Assembly: GCA_048941015.1 (NCBI GenBank)
Contig: JBHLNZ010000009.1
Location: forward strand, 1 to 64,000
Direction: 5' to 3'
Length of the DNA: 64,000 nucleotides
Origin: Promethearchaeota archaeon
GTDB taxonomy: Archaea; Asgardarchaeota; Lokiarchaeia; Sigyniarchaeales; SOKP01
In this document: positions 311 to 62,533 of the stretch, piece by piece
Position numbering within the stretch: position 1 is the first letter of the stretch
How the letters are laid out: every line of letters begins with the position of its first letter
Position numbers and translations under genes: made by a program
The notes under the pieces: model-generated
Told to the model about the DNA's origin: nothing
Databases searched by the model: none
Seen by the model: the letters and a program-made list of their open reading frames with translations, nothing else

Positions 311-2893
311 TTAAATTATCATATGTTCTGTTCTTGAAATGACCTCATCTTGAATTTCTTTTCCTAAGTCAGTGAAATAAGCAGAATACCCTCCAACTTT
401 GACGATTATGTTTCTATATGGTTCTGGGTTTTTTTGAGCCGCTTTTAATACTTCTGTAGATACAACAGTGGGTTGGAGTTGTTGACCTCCAAGAGTAAAG
501 TAAGTTTTTAGGAGAGAGATCCATTTTTTTCTAGTTTCTTCCGTTTTTCCAATACCAGATGGATGCATTCGAATGTTAACTGCACAGCCACAAACATGCT
601 GAAAATCAAGAGCTGCAACTGATCGCATAACACCTGTTGGCCCATTTTTTTCGACATTATAAGGATTGCAGCTTGCTGCAAAGGGTTTCCCTGCAAGTCT
701 ACCATCTGGTGTTGCAATACCAATTCGTCCATCATACGTGTGAGACGTCATAGATATGACAAATGGGGCATAAACTCCCCCTCGATACGTTTTATATTTA
801 TAAGTTTCTTCAAATATTCTTGTAGTAACTTCTCGAGCGAGTTCATCACATTCAGGGTTACCATTTCCCCATTTTCCTTCAAGATCCATAATGAGTTTAT
901 GGATACTTTGATACTCATCAGTGAAATTGCTATCAATCGCCTTTATTAAATCATTAAAGTTGAACTTTTTTTGCTCAAAGATGAGTTTCTTTATTACATA
1001 TAATGAATCAACCATATTTGCAATACTATTCATTATAAGTATTCCTTCTGCATCGTAAAAAGCGCCTCCTTTAGTAATATCTTTTTTGTTTTTAAAGCAT
1101 CCTCGCATGAATGCAGAAATAAAGGGTGCTGGAAAATAATTCGCGAATAATTTATCACGTATAGTAGTAGCTTCTACAATTGTTTTAATAACAAAATCTA
1201 GTTGCTGGTACAATGCATTGAGAAAATCTTCGAATGTTTCAAAGTTATCTGGATCTCCTGTCTTCAATCCTACATTATTTACTAAACCTCCAATTGTTAA
1301 ACAGTTGCCATTGCGAAGAGTCATATCGAGTGTTCTACACAATAAAAGAGCTGAAAAACCAATTCCTCCTGTTTTTCCAGGACTACACATGTCTACACAG
1401 CCAGTTATTGAATATGCATTTGCATCTCTTTCTTTAATACCTCTCTTTTTTAATGCTTCAACACATATATTATCATTAAGTACAGATAAACTAGAATATC
1501 CATTGGAATGAAGTTCAGCTACTTTCATATATAATTCTTCAGGTGTTTTATCATGAAAACGAACAGCAAAATTGAGAGACGCTTTAGATATATCTGCTGC
1601 TTCTAATATTAAATAAGTAAGCTCATTTGTTGCATCTTCTCCCTCTTCATTTAACCCTCCTATTGTTACTGGTTCTGAACCCTCAAATCGTTGGCTAAAA
1701 TCACTCACAGCATTGGAATACGGACGTATATTATGACTCATTATATTTAAAACTAACTCTTCAAGTATTTCTCTCGCTTCTTCTCGAGTGATAAGACCTT
1801 TTTTAATATCTGAATAGTAAAAAGGATAGAGAAGTTGATCTAAGCGACCAGGGCCATGCACATTAAAGGGGATGGCTAAATCTACTGTATTTTTAACAAT
1901 CCAAAATGTCTGCACTGCTTCACGAAAAGTGGTGGGAGGAGAATTTGGGATTCGCTTACATGCATTATACATCTCTGATAATACTTTTTTTCTTTGACCA
2001 TTACTAGTTTTATCTAATTCTTCTTTTACCTCTTCAGCTAATCTACGAGCATAAATCAATACCGCTTCAAGAGTTATTTCAATAGATCGAAAGAAATCTT
2101 TTTGTTCATTGGTTAAATCTTTATTCGATTCTAATTCATCCTGAATTTCTTTCTGTATAATTAAAAGTCCCTTTTTTAGGACAGTTTCAAAATCAAGAAC
2201 TAGATGACCTTGCCATACACCAATCACCGCACAGGGGGATATAACTATATCATTTTGAGCAGTTTTCAGAGGTAAATGAGATAAAAACTCATATGCTTCA
2301 CCTGTATATACCCCAGAATTAGCATATTCTTTCTCTAGAATATCTGCGAGTGTTTTATTCTTCCAATAAGAAATAAGTTCTTCTAATAGAATCTTTTTAT
2401 CTTCTTCTCGAATTTGATATGGATTAATTTTTCTTTTATCAAGAGTTTCAGTTCCTAGAGTGGTAATCGGAGCATTAATTTTTTTTGTTTTTTCAAGTAA
2501 TTCAAGAAGGCCATCAGGTCCAATTTTGTTTATCATATATGCCATGTAATTCTTGTTACTTTCTTTCATGTATTTATTCATAGTTTTTTCATCGAGTTCA
2601 ATTTCAAAAACTCTATTCCAAATTCCACGCTCAATGTCAACCGGTATTCCAATAAAATTTTCTGTCCATTTTCCAGCAATTCGATCATCAGGGTCTATAT
2701 AGATAGTCATATTTTCAAGAACATTCTTCATAGAAAGTGCAACTCTTACACCAAGAGGTTGCCCCTTATTTTCAGTTTCCTTCCATTTTTCTGTATAAAG
2801 TTGAGCTCTTTCTATCGAGATCAAAGGAATCTCATCAAGCAGTCTCCTCCTTATTCTCTTGATTCTCTCACTCGCATTATCAACAAATTCCAT
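311..2893 (-). CDS. Glycyl radical enzyme (PFL2/eliminase-like family)
   Basis: 860 aa. C-terminal Gly-radical motif IVKVGGYSAYF, Cys loop ITGCVD, GRLDQ, KWGN and ATPDGR motifs. GGAGG RBS upstream. Confidence 0.93.
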   Translation of the reverse strand: MEFVDNASERIKRIRRRLLDEIPLISIERAQLYTEKWKETENKGQPLGVRVALSMKNVLENMTIYIDPDDRIAGKWTENFIGIPVDIERGIWNRVFEIELDEKTMNKYMKESNKNYMAYMINKIGPDGLLELLEKTKKINAPITTLGTETLDKRKINPYQIREEDKKILLEELISYWKNKTLADILEKEYANSGVYTGEAYEFLSHLPLKTAQNDIVISPCAVIGVWQGHLVLDFETVLKKGLLIIQKEIQDELESNKDLTNEQKDFFRSIEITLEAVLIYARRLAEEVKEELDKTSNGQRKKVLSEMYNACKRIPNSPPTTFREAVQTFWIVKNTVDLAIPFNVHGPGRLDQLLYPFYYSDIKKGLITREEAREILEELVLNIMSHNIRPYSNAVSDFSQRFEGSEPVTIGGLNEEGEDATNELTYLILEAADISKASLNFAVRFHDKTPEELYMKVAELHSNGYSSLSVLNDNICVEALKKRGIKERDANAYSITGCVDMCSPGKTGGIGFSALLLCRTLDMTLRNGNCLTIGGLVNNVGLKTGDPDNFETFEDFLNALYQQLDFVIKTIVEATTIRDKLFANYFPAPFISAFMRGCFKNKKDITKGGAFYDAEGILIMNSIANMVDSLYVIKKLIFEQKKFNFNDLIKAIDSNFTDEYQSIHKLIMDLEGKWGNGNPECDELAREVTTRIFEETYKYKTYRGGVYAPFVISMTSHTYDGRIGIATPDGRLAGKPFAASCNPYNVEKNGPTGVMRSVAALDFQHVCGCAVNIRMHPSGIGKTEETRKKWISLLKTYFTLGGQQLQPTVVSTEVLKAAQKNPEPYRNIIVKVGGYSAYFTDLGKEIQDEVISRTEHMII

Positions 2894-53625: not shown

Positions 53626-54171
53626 ATGACAGAATTAAATAAATTAACTGTTTCTCAATTAGAAAAGTTAGCTAAAGAGTGTTCAGTTAAGTTTAAAAAA
53701 AGTGATAAAAAAGCTCTAAAAATTTCTAAAATATTAGATGCTGACATTGAAAAAGATCGCCTTACACAATTAATACACAAATACATGAGCAAAAGCAAGG
53801 AATCTAAAAAGATTAGTAAAGAAATAATTTCTGAATTAAAGGGAAGGATAAGACTGCTCGAAGAACAAGTAAAATTTTTAATGTCAAAAATCAGTGTTTC
53901 TGAAGTTACAATCGATACGGAAGCTAATAGAGATTTAATAACAATAACCAGTGATTTAGGTGATATCAAAAAATTCATTAAAGCACTTATACCACCAGGA
54001 GAAGTAATAACAATTGATGAACTAATTGAACTAAAAGAAATTCAAAAAATTCCTTTAGTAGCGTTAAAACATGCTATATATGATTTAATCGATGAAAAGA
54101 TCTTTGAAGCAAGAGAGGGAAATTCTCGACACACTATTGGTAAAAGAATAGGAATCCTAATAAGAAATTAA
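53626..54171 (+). CDS. Hypothetical protein: SAP/Rho-N-like N-terminus, coiled coil, WH-like C-terminus
   Basis: LNKLTVSQLEKLAKE...KK.LKISKIL. Confidence 0.65.
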   Translation: MTELNKLTVSQLEKLAKECSVKFKKSDKKALKISKILDADIEKDRLTQLIHKYMSKSKESKKISKEIISELKGRIRLLEEQVKFLMSKISVSEVTIDTEANRDLITITSDLGDIKKFIKALIPPGEVITIDELIELKEIQKIPLVALKHAIYDLIDEKIFEAREGNSRHTIGKRIGILIRN

Positions 54172-54190: not shown

Positions 54191-54206
54191 GTGTAATTCT
54201 TGCACC
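54191..54206. promoter_or_regulatory. Candidate sulfur-regulon operator GTGTAA-N3-TTGCAC(C)
   Basis: 15/16 identical to 58797-58812; lies just upstream of a TATA-like box of moeB. Confidence 0.6.
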
Positions 54207-54255
54207 TTTTTTTATATAAACGAAAATCATTTCTATTTTGATAATTTTCTAATGA

Positions 54256-55071
54256 ATGGAAAAAATGAATTTAACTGAAAATCAAATTAAAAGATATTCA
54301 CGTCAGATTGTTTTAAAAGAAGTGGGTGGAATAGGTCAAAAAAAGTTAATGAATTCAAAGATAACATTAATTGGATTAGGTGCCCTCGGTTCTCCTGTTG
54401 CTTATTACTTAGCAGCAGCAGGCATAGGAAAATTAAAAGTTATTGATTACGATATTGTCGAGATATCTAACCTCCATAGACAAATTCTTCATTTTACAAA
54501 GGATATCAATAGATTAAAAACTGAGAGTGCTATTGAAAAACTTAATGAGATAAACCCTGATTGTGAAGTAGTTATAATAAATAAGATGATAAATTCAAAT
54601 AATTCTAAGCAGGTTTTAAAGGATTCGGATTTTGTAATAGACGGTTCTGATAATATTCCGACTAAAATGTTAATTAATGATACTTGTATAAATCTCGAGA
54701 TACCATTTACAATAGCAGGAGTATTGAGATTTCAAGGGCAAATTATGACAGTAATTCCAAAAGAAAAGACAGCTTGTTATAGATGTATTTTTGGTGATGC
54801 AACTGATGGTGATAACAGCCTAAGTTGTTCACAAGCAGGGGTAATAGGATTTATTCCAGGGATTTTTGGGTGTATTGAAGCTAATGAGGCAATAAAATAT
54901 ATTCTCCAAATTGGTGAATTGATTACTAATAAAATATTATATATAGATCTTCTAAAAAATAATTTTGATTTTATAAAAGTTTTGAAAGACAAAAATTGTA
55001 TTGCTTGTGGAGACAATGCTAAAGATTTGGTTGAGATATTAGATTACAGAGGTAATTTGTGTAATGAATAA
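54256..55071 (+). CDS. moeB: MoeB/ThiF/UbaA E1-like adenylyltransferase
   Basis: RYSRQI, GLGALGS, D.VE.SNLHRQ, CYRC, SC.QAGV, CIAC. Confidence 0.9.
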   Translation: MEKMNLTENQIKRYSRQIVLKEVGGIGQKKLMNSKITLIGLGALGSPVAYYLAAAGIGKLKVIDYDIVEISNLHRQILHFTKDINRLKTESAIEKLNEINPDCEVVIINKMINSNNSKQVLKDSDFVIDGSDNIPTKMLINDTCINLEIPFTIAGVLRFQGQIMTVIPKEKTACYRCIFGDATDGDNSLSCSQAGVIGFIPGIFGCIEANEAIKYILQIGELITNKILYIDLLKNNFDFIKVLKDKNCIACGDNAKDLVEILDYRGNLCNE

Positions 55072-55321
55072 TCAAATAGATATGGACGATATTTCAATGA
55101 TAGATATAAGGGGAAAAATGTGTCCAATGACTTTTGTATATACAAAACTAAAATTAGAAGAACTTCAACCGGGTTCGATTTTAAAAGTATTACTAGATTT
55201 TCCCCCTGCTCTGAAAAATATTCCAGAAAGTTGTAAACGACAAAATTTAGCAGAAGTTATCAAAATTCGAGAGCTCAACAAGGGTAAGAATGAATGGTTA
55301 ATAACTTTAAAAAAAATATAG
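55064..55321 (+). CDS. tusA: TusA/SirA-family sulfur carrier
   Basis: IDIRGKMCPM, L..L.PG.IL.VLLD. Confidence 0.85.
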   Translation: MNNQIDMDDISMIDIRGKMCPMTFVYTKLKLEELQPGSILKVLLDFPPALKNIPESCKRQNLAEVIKIRELNKGKNEWLITLKKI

Positions 55322-56355
55322 AAAGCATTGATTCAGTTGAGCTTAAAAAGGCGAAGAATTTATTAGGTCTCGGCTTGATCTCGGGAGGTTTAGATAGCCT
55401 ATTAGCCTGCCTCATCCTAAAACTTCAAAATATAGATATTATTGGATTAAATTTTAAATCCCCTTTCTGTGTGTGTGATAAGGCATATAAAAGTGCTGAA
55501 TGTGGTTTGAACCTTTATTATGATAAGTTAGGTATAAACGTTCATTATTTAAAAAAAGAAGATGATTATTTAGAACTAGTAAAATCTCCCAAATTTGGGT
55601 ATGGTAAAAGTTTAAATCCTTGCATTGATTGTCGGATATATATTCTAAAAAGAGCTAAGAAGTATGCAGAAGAAATTAAAGCTGATTTAATTTTTACCGG
55701 AGAAGTTTTAAACCAAAGACCTAAATCTCAGAATAGACAAGCTTTAAAGATCATAGAACGAGAAGCTGGTCTTGAGGGAAAATTATTAAGACCTTTGTCT
55801 GCATTATTATTGGAACCAACAATTTTTGAAAAAAAAGGTGATATTGATAGAACTAAATTATTTGGGATAAATGGACGCAGTAGAAAGATCCAAGTTAGTA
55901 TTGCTCAGAGATATGGATTATTAGATTCATATTATGCCTGCGGGGGATGTTTATTAACAGATAAAGGATTTTCTAATAGAATGAAAGACTATATTAAGTA
56001 TAATATAAAATTGAAAATGGTTGATATATCACTTTTAAAAATTGGACGTCATTTTAGGTTTAATCGATCTAAAATTATAGTAGGAAGAAATGAGTTGGAA
56101 AATAAGCTCTTACTGCAACTTAAAAATCCAAAGGATTTAATTATGGAAGCTAAAAAAGTGGTAGGACCAATAACAATTATACAAGGAAGAATCAATCATC
56201 AAATAATAAAATTTGCTGCGAAATTAACATTAAGATATTCAGATAGCACAAAAAAATATGGCAAAATTGTCTATGGAACAACAATCGATTCCTTAAATGA
56301 GTCCATTATTGTTAGTCAAATAATGGAAGAGAATTTAAGATCACATATTATATAA
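55294..56355 (+). CDS. ThiI-like PP-loop thiouridylase lacking a THUMP domain
   Basis: SGGLDS, NPCIDCR, TGEVL.QRP.SQ, GGCLLT, GRHFR, VGRN..EN. Confidence 0.8.
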   Translation: MVNNFKKNIESIDSVELKKAKNLLGLGLISGGLDSLLACLILKLQNIDIIGLNFKSPFCVCDKAYKSAECGLNLYYDKLGINVHYLKKEDDYLELVKSPKFGYGKSLNPCIDCRIYILKRAKKYAEEIKADLIFTGEVLNQRPKSQNRQALKIIEREAGLEGKLLRPLSALLLEPTIFEKKGDIDRTKLFGINGRSRKIQVSIAQRYGLLDSYYACGGCLLTDKGFSNRMKDYIKYNIKLKMVDISLLKIGRHFRFNRSKIIVGRNELENKLLLQLKNPKDLIMEAKKVVGPITIIQGRINHQIIKFAAKLTLRYSDSTKKYGKIVYGTTIDSLNESIIVSQIMEENLRSHII

Positions 56356-56379
56356 TGAAGCGAAGGACCAATCTTGTTT

Positions 56380-56925
56380 TCATTTTTTAAATCTCATTAC
56401 TTTTTTAAGTTTACAATATTTACAGTTACCATCACATCCATCTTCTAAGATAGGTTCAAGAATCTCCGATTCAACATCCATTGGTAATACTAGATCTTTA
56501 ATAATATACGTTACAACATCCATAGACACTTTTTGAACTTGAGAATTATTTCTGAAATGATGATTCACAATATTATCGATTTTTTTAATTTTTGTATTAA
56601 CTATTAAAACGACCATATTATGCTCTCCACTTGTTCTAAAAGCGTTAAGCATAAAAGGACATTGTTCCACCATCTTTATAATTTCCGTTGGATTCTTTAC
56701 ATTTAAATATACAATTGCTAATTGAATATCTAAATTCTTAAAATTTAATCCAGCTTGAACCTGTAAAATACCCTTATTCTTAAGCTTTTTCAATCTTGCT
56801 CCTATAGATGGTTGACTTCTTTTTACAATTTCACCAATTTGAGTATGAGTTAAGTTTGGATCTTCTTGTAATAGAGAAATTACTCTTAAGTCAATCTTAT
56901 CTAACTTTAATTTTTTATTAGACAT
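56380..56925 (-). CDS. Lrp/AsnC regulator with C-terminal CxxxCxxC
   Basis: LDKIDLRVI..LQ.DP..T...IG..V.RSQPSI; CDGNCKYC. Confidence 0.88.
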   Translation of the reverse strand: MSNKKLKLDKIDLRVISLLQEDPNLTHTQIGEIVKRSQPSIGARLKKLKNKGILQVQAGLNFKNLDIQLAIVYLNVKNPTEIIKMVEQCPFMLNAFRTSGEHNMVVLIVNTKIKKIDNIVNHHFRNNSQVQKVSMDVVTYIIKDLVLPMDVESEILEPILEDGCDGNCKYCKLKKVMRFKK

Positions 56926-56937
56926 TGTAATATTGAA

Positions 56938-57867
56938 TTATGTTTCAAATAGTTCTGTAGATAAATATCTTTCTCCCGTGTCTGGTAAAATTACTACTAA
57001 ATTATCTCCTTTTTTAAAATCGTTTGAAGCTTTGTAAATTCCAGCCCATGCTGCAGCTCCCGCAGAAACTCCAACAAAAATTCCTTCTAATTTAGCTAAC
57101 TTTCTGGCTGTTTGTACAGCATCATCATATTCGACTTGAATTATTTCGTCATAAATTTCAGTATTTAATACTTCAGGTACAAATCCGGCACCAATACCTT
57201 GAATTTTATGCGAACCTGGCTCTCCTCCGGACAGTACTGGAGAGTCTTGTGGTTCAACAGCATAGATTTTCACATGATCCCCAATTCTTTGTTTAAGAAT
57301 TTCTCCAACCCCCGTTATCGTTCCCCCTGTACCAATCCCCGCTACAAAACCATTTACTTTTCCATCAAGATCATTGTATATTTCTTCAGCAGTAGTTTTG
57401 CGATGAATTTCTGGGTTTGCCTTATTTTTAAACTGTTGAGGAATAAAAATTTTCTTATTCTCTTTAGCTAATTCTTCAGCCTTCTCAATCGCTCCTTTCA
57501 TCCCTTTATTAGCAGGAGTTAAGATTAATTCTGCTCCATATGCTTTTAGTATTTTTCTTCTTTCAATTGACATACTATCTGGCATAGTAAGAATCAATTT
57601 ATAATTTTTAGCAGCACATACTAAAGCTAAACCTATACCGGTATTTCCTGAGGTGGGTTCAACTATTGTAGTATCCTTATTAATTAAATTTGCCTTTTCA
57701 GCCTCTTCAATCATAGCCATACAAATTCTATCTTTGACACTTGCTCCGGGATTAAAAGCTTCAACTTTAACAAAGATATTTGGATTAACATCTTTAGTAA
57801 TTCTATTGAGTCTTACTAAAGGTGTATTTCCTATTGTTTCTATTATATTATTATATACTTTTCCCAT
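56938..57867 (-). CDS. cysK: Cysteine synthase A
   Basis: IGNTPLV, SVKDR, EPTSGNTG, QQF, GTGGT, HKIQGIG, GERYLST. Confidence 0.96.
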   Translation of the reverse strand: MGKVYNNIIETIGNTPLVRLNRITKDVNPNIFVKVEAFNPGASVKDRICMAMIEEAEKANLINKDTTIVEPTSGNTGIGLALVCAAKNYKLILTMPDSMSIERRKILKAYGAELILTPANKGMKGAIEKAEELAKENKKIFIPQQFKNKANPEIHRKTTAEEIYNDLDGKVNGFVAGIGTGGTITGVGEILKQRIGDHVKIYAVEPQDSPVLSGGEPGSHKIQGIGAGFVPEVLNTEIYDEIIQVEYDDAVQTARKLAKLEGIFVGVSAGAAAWAGIYKASNDFKKGDNLVVILPDTGERYLSTELFET

Positions 57868-57901
57868 TTATAGATACACTCTTTATTTATTAATAAAATC
57901 T

Positions 57902-58735
57902 TTAAATACCTCCACCATCTAATCCATAATAGATTTCTATCTCTTTTTCAGGTTGTTTAATTCTAAGTTTTTTCTCTAAATTTTCTAACCTAGAATTTAT
58001 TGTTGAAATTGTAATTGTAATTGGATCAGGAAGATCACCATGAGAAAGATCAATCTTTTTAATTCTTTCTCCCTCTCGAGCTATAATCTTTCCAGGAACG
58101 CCAACTACTACGGAGTTTGGAGGTACATTATTCACAACTACAGAATTCGCCCCAATTCTTACATTATCTCCGATTTTTATAGGTCCTAATAACTTTGCAC
58201 CTGTACCAATAACAATATTATTACCCAACGTCGGATGCCTCTTTCCTGGATCTATCATGGTCCCTCCAAGAACTACCCCTTGATAAATAGTTACATTATC
58301 ACCGATTTTTGCTGTTTCTCCGATAACAACACCCCCTCCATGGTCAATAAAAAAATCCTTTCCTATTTCAGCACCAGGATGAATTTCTATTCCAGTTAGT
58401 TCTCTAGTAATTTCTGAAAGATATCGTGGGACGAACGGCATATTAATATTCCAAAAAAAATGAGCAATACGATGTAAAAGAATTGCTTTTATTCCAGGAT
58501 AACTTGTTAAAACTTCTAAAAGAGAACGAGCAGCGGGATCTTTATTAAATGCTGCGCTAACATCAGATATAAAGAAATCCAAAATTTTTTGTAAATTTTG
58601 ATCTACTTCTTCACGATTTAACTCTTCTAATCGAAAATCTAATTTTAAAATGCATTCTGTGCAAAAATTATAATTATTCCGTTCTTTATCGCCTAAAGTC
58701 TTACCACAATTTAAGCAGTTTAGAAATTCTTCCAT
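57902..58735 (-). CDS. cysE: Serine O-acetyltransferase with an N-terminal CxxC..CxxC extension
   Basis: DPAA, YPG, TGIEIHPGA, FIDHG, KRHP hexapeptide domain; C-terminal GGGI. Confidence 0.94.
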   Translation of the reverse strand: MEEFLNCLNCGKTLGDKERNNYNFCTECILKLDFRLEELNREEVDQNLQKILDFFISDVSAAFNKDPAARSLLEVLTSYPGIKAILLHRIAHFFWNINMPFVPRYLSEITRELTGIEIHPGAEIGKDFFIDHGGGVVIGETAKIGDNVTIYQGVVLGGTMIDPGKRHPTLGNNIVIGTGAKLLGPIKIGDNVRIGANSVVVNNVPPNSVVVGVPGKIIAREGERIKKIDLSHGDLPDPITITISTINSRLENLEKKLRIKQPEKEIEIYYGLDGGGI

Positions 58736-58796
58736 TTTCTAATTATTTTTCGGTATTTTATTAAGTAAAAAACTATTTATCGGCATAAAAAATTAA

Positions 58797-58812
58797 GTGT
58801 AATTTTTGCACC
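58797..58812. promoter_or_regulatory. Candidate sulfur-regulon operator (second copy)
   Basis: gtgtaatttttgcacc, about 60 bp upstream of cysE. Confidence 0.6.
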
Positions 58813-59028
58813 AATATATTAAATAACTTCTTACTCTTAAGGAAAATAATAAAGGAAATGAACTAAAGTCATTTTTCTAATTTGCAAAACATTTTTTAAA
58901 CTAATTCTACTAAATAAAGATTTTGGATTGGGGAGAAAAGATATTATAATTATTATTTTCGATATTAATAATTCATAACAATAAAGAATTAATATTTCAC
59001 AAATTTGTTTTTATTAGAATCATAAAAG

Positions 59029-59715
59029 GTGTTTTTAAAAATTAACATTATTCCGTTTATAACTTCAGTAATATCCTTTACTTTTGCATTTTTACTCCTT
59101 TATCAATTTATTATAAGAAGAAAAATTCATCAATTATTGTGGACTTTAGCTATTTTTTCATACGGAATTGCATCATTAATGGAATTTTTAATGAACCCTG
59201 ATTTGCTTAATTTTAATGGTATTTTATTCAACACTTTTTATTTTAATTCTTCTTTATTAGTAGGACTTTTAGGTGCAGGTCAACTATATTTAATTACTCA
59301 ACATAAAATTTCTGCTATATTTTTAGGATTTATAATAACCCTTTCAATAGGATTAATAATTTCTTTGAGTTTAACTCCCTTCCCAACTGGATTAAGTTTT
59401 TTAGGTGAACTTGGTAAAGACATAAGAATAATTTCGGATGCTTATCCATATTCAGTAAGAATTTATGCAATACTATTAGCATCAGTTGGAGGTACTATGC
59501 TACTTTTTGGCTCTTTATACAGTTTCATTAGAGATAGAACAAGATACTATACTCTTTTTTTCGCATTAGGTGCTTTAATGCCAATGCTTCGGAATATACC
59601 ATTCGGTTACTTAGGAAATGAATTAATTGGGTTAATATTCTTATTCTTGGGATTCCTTTTAAGCATGTTTCATCTTAAAAGTCAAAAGATCCAGGAATCC
59701 TCAATTCCTTCTTAG
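59029..59715 (+). CDS. About 7-TM membrane protein
   Basis: Hydrophobic segments; RRKIHQLLW, LGAGQLYL. Confidence 0.72.
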   Translation: MFLKINIIPFITSVISFTFAFLLLYQFIIRRKIHQLLWTLAIFSYGIASLMEFLMNPDLLNFNGILFNTFYFNSSLLVGLLGAGQLYLITQHKISAIFLGFIITLSIGLIISLSLTPFPTGLSFLGELGKDIRIISDAYPYSVRIYAILLASVGGTMLLFGSLYSFIRDRTRYYTLFFALGALMPMLRNIPFGYLGNELIGLIFLFLGFLLSMFHLKSQKIQESSIPS

Positions 59716-59731
59716 AAAAGTTAAAATTCTT

Positions 59732-60019
59732 TTAACCACCAGCTATAGCAGGTAAAAAAGCAATTTCATCTCCCTTATGAATCAAAGTCTCTAAACCATG
59801 ATATGAGCGAAGGTGTTTTCCATTTAATACTAATATTATATATTTATTCAATAGATCTTGAGAAGATAGGATTTGATTTTTAAAATCCTCCCCATATCTC
59901 AAAATTAATTTTCCAATTAAATCTTTAATAGAAGATTCTTCATCAATAGATAACATTAATTCTTCTTCTTCTGTTAAGTCTGCTAATAATGATAAAAATT
60001 TTATTTTTACATCAATCAA
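59732..60019 (-). CDS. MoaD/ThiS/SAMP ubiquitin-like sulfur carrier
   Basis: LNG......GLET....GDEIAFLPAIAGG with C-terminal GG. Confidence 0.9.
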   Translation of the reverse strand: MIDVKIKFLSLLADLTEEEELMLSIDEESSIKDLIGKLILRYGEDFKNQILSSQDLLNKYIILVLNGKHLRSYHGLETLIHKGDEIAFLPAIAGG

Positions 60020-60137
60020 ATAGGGAAACTCCTAAAAATCATAATTTCATATGTATAATAGGAATTAAAGTAATTATTTATTTTGATTATAAAACTTAAA
60101 TAATTTTAAAATAAATATGGATTTTATATAACTAAAT

Positions 60138-61097
60138 TTGAGCTATTTAAAAATGAAAGATAGTCTTAATATAGGACACTTGTCGACAGCTTATCATACA
60201 AATTTTATTTTAATGGGAGAGAAAAGATTAAGTAAAGATCTCAATAGAAATATCAACTGGCTTCTATTTGGAACAGGCCCAGCGATGGTTAAGGCTTTTT
60301 TAAATGGGAAAATTGATGCTGGCTATATGGGTTTGCCTCCCGCAATCATAGGAATAAGTAATGGGGCTCCAATTAAATGTGTTGCGGGGGGGCATGTTGA
60401 AGGGACAATAATGATCGCTCAAGATGAATATAAAAATATTAAAGAGTTAAATAATAATATAGGAGATGTATTGTCTCAGTTTAAAGGAGAGACTATTGGG
60501 GTTCCTAGTAGGGGATCTATTCATGATGTTATTTTAACTCATTTTTTAAACAAATATCATCTAATAAATGAAGTACATATAAAGAACTATAAACAAGCAG
60601 AATTTATAGCAATAGATATGGAAAAAAATATATTAGCAGGGGGTGTTGGTACTCCTGCATTAGCTGTTTTTGCTCAAACAATTTTAAAATCCCAACTTAT
60701 AATTCCCGCTCAATATTTATGGCCAAATAATCCTAGTTACGGTGTATTTTTTCATGAATCTTATATTAAAAATTATCCTGAAATAATAATTAAGTTTCTT
60801 AAACATCATAAAGAGGCATCAACTCTACTTCGAACTGATCAATCAATAGCCGCTGAAAAAATTTCTAATACGTTTGGAATTATAACTAAATCTTATGCTG
60901 AATCTGTTTTAAAAATATCCCCCAAATATTGTATCGCACTTACAGAAAATTATGTAAAAGCAACAATGGAATTTGTTAATAAACTCCATGAATTGGGCTA
61001 TATCAATGAAAATCTTGAAGTTGACGATATTTTCTACTTTAATTTTGTAAAAGAAGTACATCCTGAAGATGATCATTATATAAGCCTCAAAAATTAA
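60138..61097 (+). CDS. SsuA/THI5-like substrate-binding-fold protein, no signal peptide
   Basis: FGTGP.MV.AF..G.IDAGYMG.PP, G.TIGVP..GSIHD. Confidence 0.8.
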   Translation: MSYLKMKDSLNIGHLSTAYHTNFILMGEKRLSKDLNRNINWLLFGTGPAMVKAFLNGKIDAGYMGLPPAIIGISNGAPIKCVAGGHVEGTIMIAQDEYKNIKELNNNIGDVLSQFKGETIGVPSRGSIHDVILTHFLNKYHLINEVHIKNYKQAEFIAIDMEKNILAGGVGTPALAVFAQTILKSQLIIPAQYLWPNNPSYGVFFHESYIKNYPEIIIKFLKHHKEASTLLRTDQSIAAEKISNTFGIITKSYAESVLKISPKYCIALTENYVKATMEFVNKLHELGYINENLEVDDIFYFNFVKEVHPEDDHYISLKN

Positions 61098-61186
61098 GAA
61101 TTTAGCTAGAATACTAAATTTAAAATATAAACCCTTATAATAGTGCAAGAATAAAATTCATATAAAATATTAATTATAGTTTCTAT

Positions 61187-61750
61187 ATGCAACTTGATCA
61201 TATTGATAAGCAAATTATAAATGCTCTGTTTTTAAACGGACGTGAGAGTCTCACTAATCTTGAAAAAATTATTTTCAAATCTAAGCAAGAAACAATGAGT
61301 CATACGGGAATCTCTAAAAGAATTTCTAGATTAGAAGAAGCAGACATTCTTAAGGTTCAAGCAAATGCAAATATAAAAAGATTAGGTTATAAAGCTTTAT
61401 TTATTCTGATGGAAATGCGGAATTATGAAGAAGAAAGAAAGATAATTGAAGCTTATTCAGAATGTCCAAGAGTATTTTTGTTAGCCCATGTTACAGGACA
61501 GTATAATTTAATATTAGGGATAATGGGGCAGAGCATTGAAGTTTTACATAGATTTCTTAATTATTGTGGCCCTACCAATAAGGAAGGTATATTACATTCA
61601 GCAACTATATTTGTCTCAGAATTAATTACTCCTACATTTTTGCCATTCAATATATTTAGTTCAGAAAGTAAAGAACAAAAGTGTGGTAACATGTGTGCAG
61701 AATGTACCGCATATTTAGATGGTAAATGCAGGGGTTGTGGAGAATTTTAA
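61187..61750 (+). CDS. Lrp/AsnC regulator with a 5-Cys C-terminal motif (copy 1)
   Basis: LDHIDKQII.AL..NGR, TGQYNL, CGNMCAEC-X7-CRGC. Confidence 0.88.
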   Translation: MQLDHIDKQIINALFLNGRESLTNLEKIIFKSKQETMSHTGISKRISRLEEADILKVQANANIKRLGYKALFILMEMRNYEEERKIIEAYSECPRVFLLAHVTGQYNLILGIMGQSIEVLHRFLNYCGPTNKEGILHSATIFVSELITPTFLPFNIFSSESKEQKCGNMCAECTAYLDGKCRGCGEF

Positions 61751-61839
61751 TTGCTCATATTAACATAATTTAATTTTTATTATTGAAGTTCGTTAATAGT
61801 TCTTTAACTTTTTATATAAAGACGATCTTTAATTTTTAC

Positions 61840-61917
61840 TGTTTCAAATTGAAACAATTAAGGAGAAAATGTTTGAAATTAAAACTAAAGTGAGTATAAT
61901 TGTTTAATGTAATCAAA
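61840..61917. promoter_or_regulatory. Array of TGTTTCAA-A-TTGAAACA boxes spaced 30/31 bp
   Basis: Perfect palindrome at 61840-61856, 14/17 copy at 61870, half site at 61901, further 14/17 copy at 62840. Confidence 0.55.
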
Positions 61918-61969
61918 CTAGCAAAATATAAGGATATTTTTTTTAAATCATCGATTCTAATCATATATT

Positions 61970-62533
61970 ATGGAATTAGACAAAATTGATAAACAAATTC
62001 TAAATGCATTATTCATTGATGGAAGAGAGAGCTTAAGTAACTTAAGTAACCAAGTCGAAAAATCAGATCAACAAAAAATGAGTCATACAGGAATAGCAAA
62101 AAGAATTTCTAAATTAGAAGATTCTAGAATTTTAAAGGTTCAAGGAAATATTAGTATTTCAGAGCTTAATTATTATACGGCTTTTATACTTATGGAAATG
62201 AAAAATTATGACGAAATTCAAACCATAATAGATCAATACTCCGAATGCCCAAGAGTTTTCTTATTAGCTCATGTGACTGGACAATATAACTTAATTTTTG
62301 GAATAATAGGACAGAATGTTGATGTTTTACGCAGATTTATAAATTATTGTGGTCCTACTAATAAAAAAGGTATTTTGCATTCAGCGATTATCTTTGCTTC
62401 TGACATTATAAACCCAAAATTTCTACCTATAGACCTTTTTAGTGGCGTTAGTAAAGAGCATAAATGTGGTAATATCTGTAAGGGTTGTGAAGCATTTCTC
62501 AAAGGCGATTGCTGTGGGTGCGGTAATTTTTAA
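61970..62533 (+). CDS. Lrp/AsnC regulator with C-terminal Cys motif (tandem paralogue)
   Basis: Same length (187 aa) and motifs; CGNICKGC-X7-CCGC. Confidence 0.88.
   Translation: MELDKIDKQILNALFIDGRESLSNLSNQVEKSDQQKMSHTGIAKRISKLEDSRILKVQGNISISELNYYTAFILMEMKNYDEIQTIIDQYSECPRVFLLAHVTGQYNLIFGIIGQNVDVLRRFINYCGPTNKKGILHSAIIFASDIINPKFLPIDLFSGVSKEHKCGNICKGCEAFLKGDCCGCGNF

Follow-up and report, generated by a model that had tools for sequence, protein, structure and literature searches.

A conserved Lrp-type operator shared by cysteine synthesis and sulfur transfer operons of a Promethearchaeota archaeon, with Cys-tailed Lrps as candidate binders

Two convergent sulfur operons share an Lrp-type operator

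We analyzed the first 64,000 nucleotides (here called the window) of contig JBHLNZ010000009.1 (our contig C123) of a Promethearchaeota archaeon, whose assembly comprises 3.59 Mb, has 29% G+C, and is 95% complete. Between positions 54191 and 62533 the window holds a sulfur locus with two convergent operons: the E1 operon, encoding an E1-like adenylyltransferase, TusA, and a PP-loop/NFACT-R protein, and the cysE2-cysK2-lrp1 operon, encoding a second cysteine synthesis pair and an Lrp/AsnC regulator. Both promoters carry the same short operator, which has the form bound by archaeal Lrp (FFRP) proteins and is conserved in related genomes. Taken as a whole, the data are best explained, with slightly better than even confidence, by a species-conserved FFRP operator that governs a small local regulon, is bound by a Cys-tailed Lrp of the locus, and allows Fe-S or sulfur sensing through the Cys tail. 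What the sequences show directly are the genes, the box, its conservation, and its Lrp-type form; which Lrp binds, whether it raises or lowers transcription, and what the tail ligates are what we infer here. To our knowledge, no transcription-factor regulon has been characterized in Asgard archaea.

The original prediction had drawn attention to two boxes, GTGTAATTCTTGCACC at 54191 and GTGTAATTTTTGCACC at 58797, that are identical at 15 of 16 positions, and both were present. The promoter elements were as follows.

54191..54205, unstranded: Box 1, GTGTAATTCTTGCAC, core TGTAA-TTC-TTGCA (motif match and orthologous boxes)
54211..54218, plus strand: TATA-like element TTTATATA of the E1-TusA-PP-loop operon (read from sequence)
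58797..58811, unstranded: Box 2, core TGTAA-TTT-TTGCA (on the cysE strand GTGCAAAAATTACAC, then TTAATTTTTTAT)
61143..61152, plus strand: doubtful half-site GTGCAAGAAT ahead of Lrp2 (marginal count)

Box 1 is followed, after a one-base gap, by CTTTTTTTATATAA/TTTTTTTATATAA, with the E1 start codon 51 bp past the box. Box 2 lies 62 bp ahead of the cysE2 start codon. The box is an imperfect palindrome, and its two copies are opposite in orientation relative to transcription. These promoter elements were read from the sequence and are predicted. A scan for sigma-70 promoters and terminators returned 59 matches against 51 expected and 0 terminators; this bacterial model is uninformative for an archaeon.

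The box was rare. GTGYAA-N3-TTRCAC matched three times in the window, compared with 0.00 matches expected from shuffles, and the genome-wide scan suggested with the original prediction found these same three matches and no others in 3.59 Mb, the only two intergenic ones being Box 1 and Box 2. The shorter core TGYAA-N3-TTRCA occurred at 39 sites in the genome, of which 4 were intergenic. The other two intergenic core sites (contigs C12 and C122) precede genes for short-chain dehydrogenase-like and unknown-function proteins, and a wider regulon in this genome was rejected. The 10-bp partial copy reported at 61143 does exist. It proved to be a half-site only and was not supported as a third box: its count was matched in 2 of 100 shuffles, which is marginal, and it had no counterpart in the relatives that share the arrangement of binding-protein gene and Lrp. 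The third exact match to the full motif, GTGCAACTCTTACAC at 2737-2751, lies approximately 150 bp inside the coding sequence of an 860-amino-acid (aa) protein (311-2893, minus strand) and is probably a chance occurrence.

The palindromes recognized by archaeal Lrp (FFRP) proteins span 13 bp and have the pattern abcdeWWWedcba, and the optimum of Ss-LrpB determined by SELEX is TGCAA-WWW-TTGCA (PMC2715240). The box conforms to this scheme, with one non-W base in the center of Box 1, and its form in relatives is TGCAA-AAA-TTGCA. Judged by the form of the site, we take Box 1 and Box 2 to be an Lrp-family (FFRP) operator. This supports the earlier proposal of Lrp control.

At both promoters the operator abuts the TFB recognition element (BRE)/TATA region from upstream. 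Because the site touches the BRE from this side, the regulator probably acts on the recruitment of TFB and TBP, through either activation (as for CopR, Ptr2, and LysM) or occlusion. A conserved operator common to both operons gives good support to the predicted regulon that ties the second cysE-cysK pair to the E1/TusA/SAMP relay. Such a local regulon would couple extra cysteine synthesis to protein-thiocarboxylate and TusA sulfur transfer.

The operator is conserved at orthologous promoters

We compared the locus with 41 genomes of the same GTDB genus as the window. The E1 promoters were aligned on the TATA region, and 23 were readable. In 15 of these, the core TGYAA-N3-TTRCA stood, either exact or with a single mismatch, 1 to 3 nucleotides (nt) upstream of the T-run/TATA. 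The chance of such a core in a 25-nt intergenic window was estimated at 0.005, and the conservation of the E1 box is far beyond chance, even when only eight independent lineages are counted. The T-run and TATA were also kept, the sequence further upstream of the box had diverged, and the TATA-proximal half, TTGCAC, was the best-kept part of the box.

Conservation extended to the cysE2 and Lrp1-clade promoters. The motif is thus kept at orthologous promoters, as the original prediction had required. Every locus-linked cysE2 promoter had the box followed by TTAATTTTTTAT: it was found in the window, G013, G022, and G055, with a two-mismatch version of the box in G003. No box was seen at any of 25 housekeeping cysE promoters. 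All four Lrp1-clade genes had a box at their own promoter with 0 to 2 mismatches; besides that of the window, these are the true Lrp1 orthologues of G010 and G018 and an Lrp1-like gene in the G048 locus. In these three relatives the box-like site is followed by the same T-rich element as in the window (TTAATTTTTTAT in G010 and G018). A perfect palindrome, ATGCAAAAATTGCAT, lies upstream of four sulfur-linked genes for Lrps of 187 aa. Outside the locus, strict 15-mers were rare in the relatives and mostly located in coding sequences, and three were intergenic, ahead of genes that have no relation to sulfur; the regulon is therefore local.

Two other conserved promoter stretches were seen in the relatives. 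Many housekeeping cysE promoters (L044-L068) share a stretch of about TTTTATGATTTATAATCAAAAATT, possibly another operator. In the promoter of the SsuA-like gene of G017 (L103), G044 (L100), and G005 (L099), a box-like palindrome, TCGCAATTATTGCGA, lies downstream of a conserved GATTATAAAA; this palindrome had no counterpart in the intergenic region between the SAMP and SsuA-like genes of the window.

The locus recurs across the genus

The gene clustering was not unique to this genome. The tusA gene was found in 24 of the 41 genomes, always within an E1-TusA(-PP-loop) operon. The recurrent cluster comprises E1-TusA-PP-loop/NFACT-R, SAMP, an SsuA-like protein, and often a 187-aa Lrp. In every genome for which wider flanks were fetched, the E1 operon converges on SAMP and the SsuA-like gene is divergent from SAMP. 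Four relatives (G013, G022, G055, and a metagenome contig identical to G022) carry a second cysE-cysK between SAMP and the converging E1 operon, and the same cysE-cysK copy adjoins SAMP in G003. The arrangement in the window, with an inverted cysE module, an added lrp1, and an added membrane protein gene, is a local variant.

Lrp1 and Lrp2 are the leading candidate binders

Three Lrps are encoded at the locus. Their coordinates, with those of a second type of box, were as follows.

56380..56925, minus strand: Lrp1, Lrp/AsnC regulator with a CX3CX2C tail (HTH_AsnC, AsnC_trans_reg)
61187..61750, plus strand: Lrp2, an Lrp of 187 aa whose helix-turn-helix (HTH) has a 6-aa insert, with body Cys in CPR and CGP and the tail CX3CX2C-X7-CX2C (sequence, alignment)
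61970..62533, plus strand: Lrp3, 187-aa paralogue of Lrp2 (preceded by GTTTCAAATTGAAAC at 61841)
61841-61855 in the window: GTTTC-N5-GAAAC box; in relatives at L117:6457, 6974, and 7709, L120:7664 and 7694, L031:8279 and 8309, and L032:10197

Membership of the Lrp/AsnC (FFRP) family was evident. Lrp1 matched HTH_24 and HTH_AsnC above the cutoffs and AsnC_trans_reg weakly, residues 2-131 of Lrp2 matched FL11 (PH1519) with an E value of 1e-7, and an AlphaFold 2 (AF2) model of Lrp2 showed the HTH and the strands and helices of the RAM domain. Lrp2 and Lrp3 share a 6-residue insert in the HTH loop.

As candidate binder in the window we place Lrp1 at the top, followed by Lrp2 and then by an unlinked regulator. 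The lrp1 gene sits 12 bp downstream of cysK2 and is predicted to be cotranscribed with cysE-cysK from the box promoter; were Lrp1 the binder, it would govern its own expression from the cysE promoter. The position of Lrp2 is syntenic with that of sulfur-type Lrps. The E1 box is kept in all 10 genomes with a locus-linked 187-aa Lrp beside the SsuA-like gene, and a linked Lrp was found in none of the 8 box-less genomes. Together these observations point to a Cys-tailed Lrp of the locus as the most likely binder.

All three Lrps had been attributed to the sulfur locus. Lrp3, and possibly Lrp2, falls in a clade whose other members lie between or flank Ccm and NiFe-hydrogenase genes, and by its relationships Lrp3 belongs to the adjacent Ccm/haem system.

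The GTTTC-N5-GAAAC boxes also have the FFRP form (TTTCA-WWW-TGAAA) and occur in pairs approximately 30 bp apart. The copy at 61841 is the sole perfect intergenic one in its genome. In relatives such boxes accompany an 85-aa MarR gene (in the MarR-DsrE operon and in the MarR/Lrp1 intergenic region) as well as 187-aa Lrps. Because they travel with the 85-aa MarR, this protein is an alternative binder of the GTTTC-type boxes.

The Cys tails define a wide archaeal Lrp family

As predicted, all three Lrps have CX3CX2C tails, to which Lrp2 and Lrp3 add X7-CX2C; Lrp1 ends in CDGNCKYC. All four Lrp1-clade genes keep the Lrp1 tail. Across 120 close homologues, the five-Cys motif of Lrp2 and Lrp3 shows no variation, and in an alignment of 31 sequences C93 (CPR), C127 (CGP), C166, C170, C173, C181, and C184 were invariant. 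We saw the strict 187-aa family in no GTDB family other than that of the window.

When 1.8 billion representatives were searched with a profile, 190 clusters were found at E values up to 1e-10. The best 150 matches (cluster representatives at 50% identity) included 149 distant ones, and 79 of these have CX3CX2C-X5-10-CX2C, usually in the form PCGxxCxxCxxY....CxGCP. The sources of the distant family include Methanomicrobia, Helarchaeales, and many Asgard families, and in 25 distant sequences the CPR and the five tail Cys were invariant. Lrp1-like proteins share a body Cys (CPF) and CX3C(X2C). In Lrp1-3 and ten distant relatives, no Pfam model covered the tail, and TRASH, YHS, and Arc_trans_TRASH were not found at E values up to 0.01 to 1; the Cys spacing differs from these domains. 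A search of the ESM Atlas with the tail gave no usable match. A likeness of the tail to DUF3795 was not confirmed. By these comparisons, the five-Cys tail together with the CPR defines a wide archaeal Lrp family that has no Pfam model.

The gene contexts of distant members were read with Pfam labels for three of them. One adjoins a SufBD-SufC-FeS_assembly_P operon with SLAC1, another TauE with TtuA, and the third SLAC1; TauE-like and SufC/SufBD genes are also found repeatedly beside Cys-tailed Lrps of other Asgard families. These contexts support, short of proof, a link between Cys-tailed Lrps and sulfur, Fe-S, or metal cofactors, and they fit Fe-S, zinc, and thiol-switch chemistry alike. The "CysE-like" neighbor of distant Asgard five-Cys Lrps turned out to be a NeuD/LpxA-like hexapeptide acyltransferase, the commonest neighbor in one family; it is not CysE and was not counted as a sulfur link.

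Fe-S or thiol sensing by the Cys tails is thus plausible on sequence grounds. In such a scheme, the CPR or CPF of the RAM domain and CX3CX2C (with or without X7-CX2C) would hold an Fe-S cluster or a metal or would undergo thiol/persulfide chemistry, which would let expression track sulfur or Fe-S status. A far broader proposal, which we offer tentatively and doubt on balance, is that Cys-tailed Lrps are widespread archaeal Fe-S/persulfide sensors and a counterpart of IscR/SufR, acting in Asgard archaea and methanogen relatives through FFRP boxes next to the BRE on sulfur mobilization, Fe-S assembly, sulfite export, Ccm, and NiFe hydrogenase. A limited literature search found no report of an archaeal Lrp sensing Fe-S or sulfur status.

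Two side observations concern these proteins. Fused forms exist, some joining an N-terminal GAF domain to Lrp and Cys tail (P0122 and P0124), and tandem double-Lrp proteins occur in other families of the order; the matches in G027, G029, G031, and G033 are open frames of 360 to 415 aa. The NCBI labels Thor-, Odin-, Hod-, and Heimdallarchaeota on 187-aa Lrp homologues look unreliable: a contig labeled Hodarchaeota (L118) bears an Lrp identical to that of the same-genus G048:C20 (L123).

Alternative explanations

Several findings weigh against binding and sensing by a local Cys-tailed Lrp. The relatives are kin, so counts of genomes overstate independence. The E1 box is kept in G005, G044, and G047, which have neither a 187-aa Lrp nor any local Lrp, and G013, G022, G055, and G045 keep boxes without an Lrp1-clade gene; therefore no single local Lrp fits every genome. 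In the tree, Lrp2 of the window groups, although weakly (81/79 support), with the Ccm/hydrogenase-type Lrps. According to published contact rules, base b should be T and not G for the Thr that the 187-aa family has at FL11 position 36, and the His24, Gln35, Pro36, and Gly39 of Lrp1-like proteins do not match Ss-LrpB either. The promoters of the universal Lrp1b/Lrp1c pair had no box in seven genomes, which argues against Lrp1 as the binder. The tail of the Lrp2 model had a predicted local distance difference test (pLDDT) score below 50, with the RAM fold confident; with the lack of a Pfam match, this score does not distinguish a structural zinc site from an Fe-S site.

Part of this evidence would be accommodated if the box were bound by a regulator outside the locus, either an Lrp1-like paralogue (Lrp1b, 1c, or 1d) or a protein of another family, with the local Lrps being mere members of the regulon or serving Ccm/haem/hydrogenase genes through GTTTC-N5-GAAAC. 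We consider this unlikely. It draws on the boxes that persist in G005, G044, and G047 and on the Lrp1-like paralogues, which are present in every genome searched, all share His24, Ser34, Gln35, Pro36, Thr/Ser/Ala37, and Gly39, and with this common recognition set could explain the boxes of genomes that have no local Lrp. It also draws on the 187-aa Lrps beside Ccm and NiFe-hydrogenase genes, near which GTTTC-type boxes lie, and on Thr36, which fits the T at base b of TTTCA-WWW-TGAAA. However, the box-free Lrp1b/Lrp1c promoters tell against such a paralogue too, the box tracks the locus-linked Lrp (10/10 versus 0/8), and the Lrp1-clade genes and the four sulfur-type 187-aa Lrp genes bear a box at their own promoters, the usual sign of autoregulation. 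That the boxes have no function at all, as chance matches or the relic of a duplicated promoter, is very improbable. An AT-rich genome favors short repeats, an extra exact match lies inside a coding sequence at 2737, and the core is not enriched in intergenic DNA genome-wide (4 of 39 sites); yet no match was expected in shuffles of the window, the same promoter position is kept across species whose flanks have diverged, the housekeeping cysE promoters are free of the box (0/25), and the site is identical to a proven Lrp-binding consensus.

The tails might instead be structural zinc sites without a sensing role, the RAM domain binding a small molecule such as cysteine, O-acetylserine, or another amino acid. 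This is a possibility that we take seriously and still judge the less probable one. Classical Lrp/FFRP proteins sense amino acids via the RAM domain (PMC2995911). Moreover, CX2C...CX2C pairs often bind zinc, the RAM fold was predicted confidently and the tail was not, and the controlled genes make cysteine. On the other side, the five tail Cys and the CPR are invariant from Asgard archaea to Methanomicrobia and exceed the ligand need of one zinc site, Suf Fe-S assembly, TauE, and SLAC1 genes are among the neighbors, and CopR offers an analogy for sensing through a Cys-rich C-terminal module. The CX3CX2C and the terminal C-x-G-C-P of the tails also resemble cluster-binding motifs.

The locus gives a concrete test case: its two Lrp-type operators are short, conserved, and at defined promoter positions, with two or three possible regulators encoded alongside. 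A cluster in the tail would make it a new sensor module for the Lrp family and would show how anaerobic archaea adjust cysteine supply and thiocarboxylate/TusA transfer to need. Should the tail bind zinc and nothing more, the locus would still illustrate well how a small local regulon is conserved.

Genes of the two operons and their neighbors

Gene calls were checked against Pfam and NCBIfam, and the genes named in the original prediction (moeB-tusA-thiI-like converging on cysE-cysK-lrp, with a GG-ended MoaD/SAMP nearby) were all borne out.

53626..54171, plus strand: up181, 181-aa protein of unknown function (no Pfam family)
54256..55071, plus strand: E1-like adenylyltransferase of the MoeB/ThiF/UbaA type without a rhodanese domain (PF00899, 249 bits)
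55064..55321, plus strand: TusA-family sulfur carrier with the Cys in the motif MCPMT (PF01206, 69 bits)
55294..56355, plus strand: ThiI/MnmA-like PP-loop ATPase fused to NFACT-R (DUF814) (PF18297, PF02568, PF03054)
56938..57867, minus strand: CysK2, O-acetylserine sulfhydrylase, second copy (TIGR01139, 458 bits versus a cutoff of 351)
57902..58735, minus strand: CysE2, serine O-acetyltransferase, second copy (TIGR01172, 231 bits versus a cutoff of 211)
59029..59715, plus strand: membrane protein with a weak DUF7471 match (absent from orthologous loci)
59732..60019, minus strand: MoaD/SAMP1-type ubiquitin-like sulfur carrier ending in AGG (TIGR01687, 55 bits versus a cutoff of 49.5; PF02597)
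60138..61097, plus strand: cytoplasmic SsuA/NMT1-like binding-protein fold (PF13379, 68 bits; TIGR01728 below the cutoff)

The tusA gene overlaps the stop codon of E1, and the 5' end of the PP-loop gene overlaps tusA. For E1, the best models were MoeB and the SAMP-activating E1, with scores below the equivalog cutoffs for MoeB and UbaA. The protein carries CYRC and CIAC pairs, as expected for the zinc-binding CxxC of E1/ubiquitin-like carrier systems, and together with the GG-ended carrier it shows the defining features of MoeB-MoaD, ThiF-ThiS, and UbaA-SAMP systems. The PP-loop/NFACT-R protein has SGGLDS and CIDC motifs, and its nearest structures in the PDB are those of MnmA. With SGGxDS, CxxC, the NFACT-R fusion, and a tusA neighbor, it has the features of the ThiI+DUF814(NFACT-R)/TusA pathway and is a predicted RNA or tRNA thiouridine synthetase.

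From family knowledge, E1 would adenylate the GG-ended carrier. Since E1 has no rhodanese domain, TusA is the probable donor of sulfur to the carrier, whose thiocarboxylate would feed the PP-loop/NFACT-R enzyme, probably for the thiolation of RNA. The description of the locus as self-contained did not hold: it has no cysteine desulfurase, rhodanese, or JAMM protease, and the DsrEFH genes of this genome are on another contig. No JAB/MPN isopeptidase was found among the open reading frames of the locus, so the isopeptidase feature of sampylation was not seen, and no evidence of conjugation was found either.

CysE2 and CysK2 matched cysteine synthesis models at the equivalog level. CysE2 has an N-terminal extension, CLNC-X14-CTEC, and ends in ...DGGGI; the Cys extension is kept in locus-linked orthologues, which are 277 to 279 aa in full length. 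The closest CysE2 orthologues (75 to 80% identity) are all linked to the sulfur locus, and housekeeping cysE products are 64 to 72% identical. The genome's own housekeeping cysE/cysK copy is on contig C84. The synthase scored best as CysK, with CysM models under their cutoffs, and the locus has no JAMM protease; it is not a member of the CysO/CysM system. A CysO/CysM-like use of the carrier thiocarboxylate may still serve as a mechanism, because SAMP, cysE, and cysK are co-oriented in relatives. The cysE2-cysK2 pair would thus either boost the cysteine supply for the relay or take the carrier thiocarboxylate as sulfide donor.

In G010 (L031:11190-12632) and G018 (L032:6762-8204), a cysteinyl-tRNA synthetase gene, followed by a PP-loop/NFACT-R gene, converges on the Lrp1 orthologue, which by its neighborhood is another cysteine link for Lrp1. 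A tblastn search of the window's own assembly gave no match to this type of cysteinyl-tRNA synthetase at E values up to 1e-8 (the assembly being 95% complete).

Orthologues of up181 with 58 to 76% identity adjoin E1 in approximately 13 genomes; their presence does not track the box, and up181 was rejected as a regulator. The membrane protein at 59029..59715 is a lineage-specific insertion and probably lies outside the regulon.

Comparison with known systems

The closest parallel in regulatory design is CopR of Pyrococcus furiosus, an Lrp with a Cys-rich, metal-sensing TRASH domain; at nearly all the promoters it regulates, its site, a semi-palindrome of 15 bp, lies directly upstream of the BRE (PMC7830388). 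The Lrps of the locus resemble this Thermococcales regulator in having an Lrp HTH and a Cys-rich C-terminal module, a 15-bp site upstream of the BRE, and a local operon as target. They differ in the tail, which is CX3CX2C(-X7-CX2C) and not TRASH, and in the predicted targets, which are sulfur-relay and cysteine genes rather than copper export. By analogy, they may work like CopR, yet they are not members of the TRASH-Lrp group.

The box core TGYAA-WWW-TTRCA equals the optimum of Ss-LrpB of Saccharolobus solfataricus, a 5-3-5 palindrome with an A/T center. Ss-LrpB regulates pyruvate-ferredoxin oxidoreductase and permease genes. Unlike the Lrps of the locus, it has no Cys tail, and its recognition residues (L, P, I, S, T, R) differ from those of Lrp1 (H, S, Q, P, S, G) and Lrp2 (L, S, H, T, G, S).

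The relay resembles the UbaA-SAMP (Haloferax), TtuBCD-TtuA, and Urm1-Uba4 systems in that its E1-like adenylyltransferase is joined by a GG-ended beta-grasp carrier and, in the role of consumer, by a PP-loop thiolase. It differs from them in an E1 without rhodanese, the overlap with tusA, a ThiI-like/NFACT-R consumer instead of NcsA/TtuA, and the attached cysE-cysK. A thiouridylation pathway for s4U formation that combines ThiI+DUF814 with TusA was predicted by Burroughs and Aravind in 2014, in whose account the family is mostly bacterial, with a few members in Thaumarchaeota, and IscS is the donor (PMC4075521). The domain fusion is the same here and the adjacency to TusA is conserved, whereas the present version is found in Asgard archaea, inside an E1/SAMP module, and under an Lrp-type operator.

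The likeness to IscR (Rrf2) and SufR lies in the proposed logic only, in which a Cys-ligated cofactor would report Fe-S or sulfur status, and in the Suf genes that adjoin distant Lrp members. The folds are unrelated (Lrp/AsnC here versus Rrf2 or DeoR), and a cluster in the Lrps is hypothetical.

Further sulfur and metal genes near the locus

Several relatives' loci add genes for NifU, a TtuA-like PP-loop protein, a radical SAM protein, DsrE/F/H, the FTR1 iron permease, and a CDF transporter. The DsrE/F/H-FTR1 block adjoins the SsuA-like gene in relatives and is on a separate contig in the genome of the window, where that contig (C51, with DsrEFH, FTR1, and MarR-DsrE) has no boxes. The block of DsrE/DsrF/DsrH (TusBCD-like), FTR1, CDF transporter, and MarR85-DsrE lies at C51:4086-8062 in this genome and at L099:4996-7210 in a relative.

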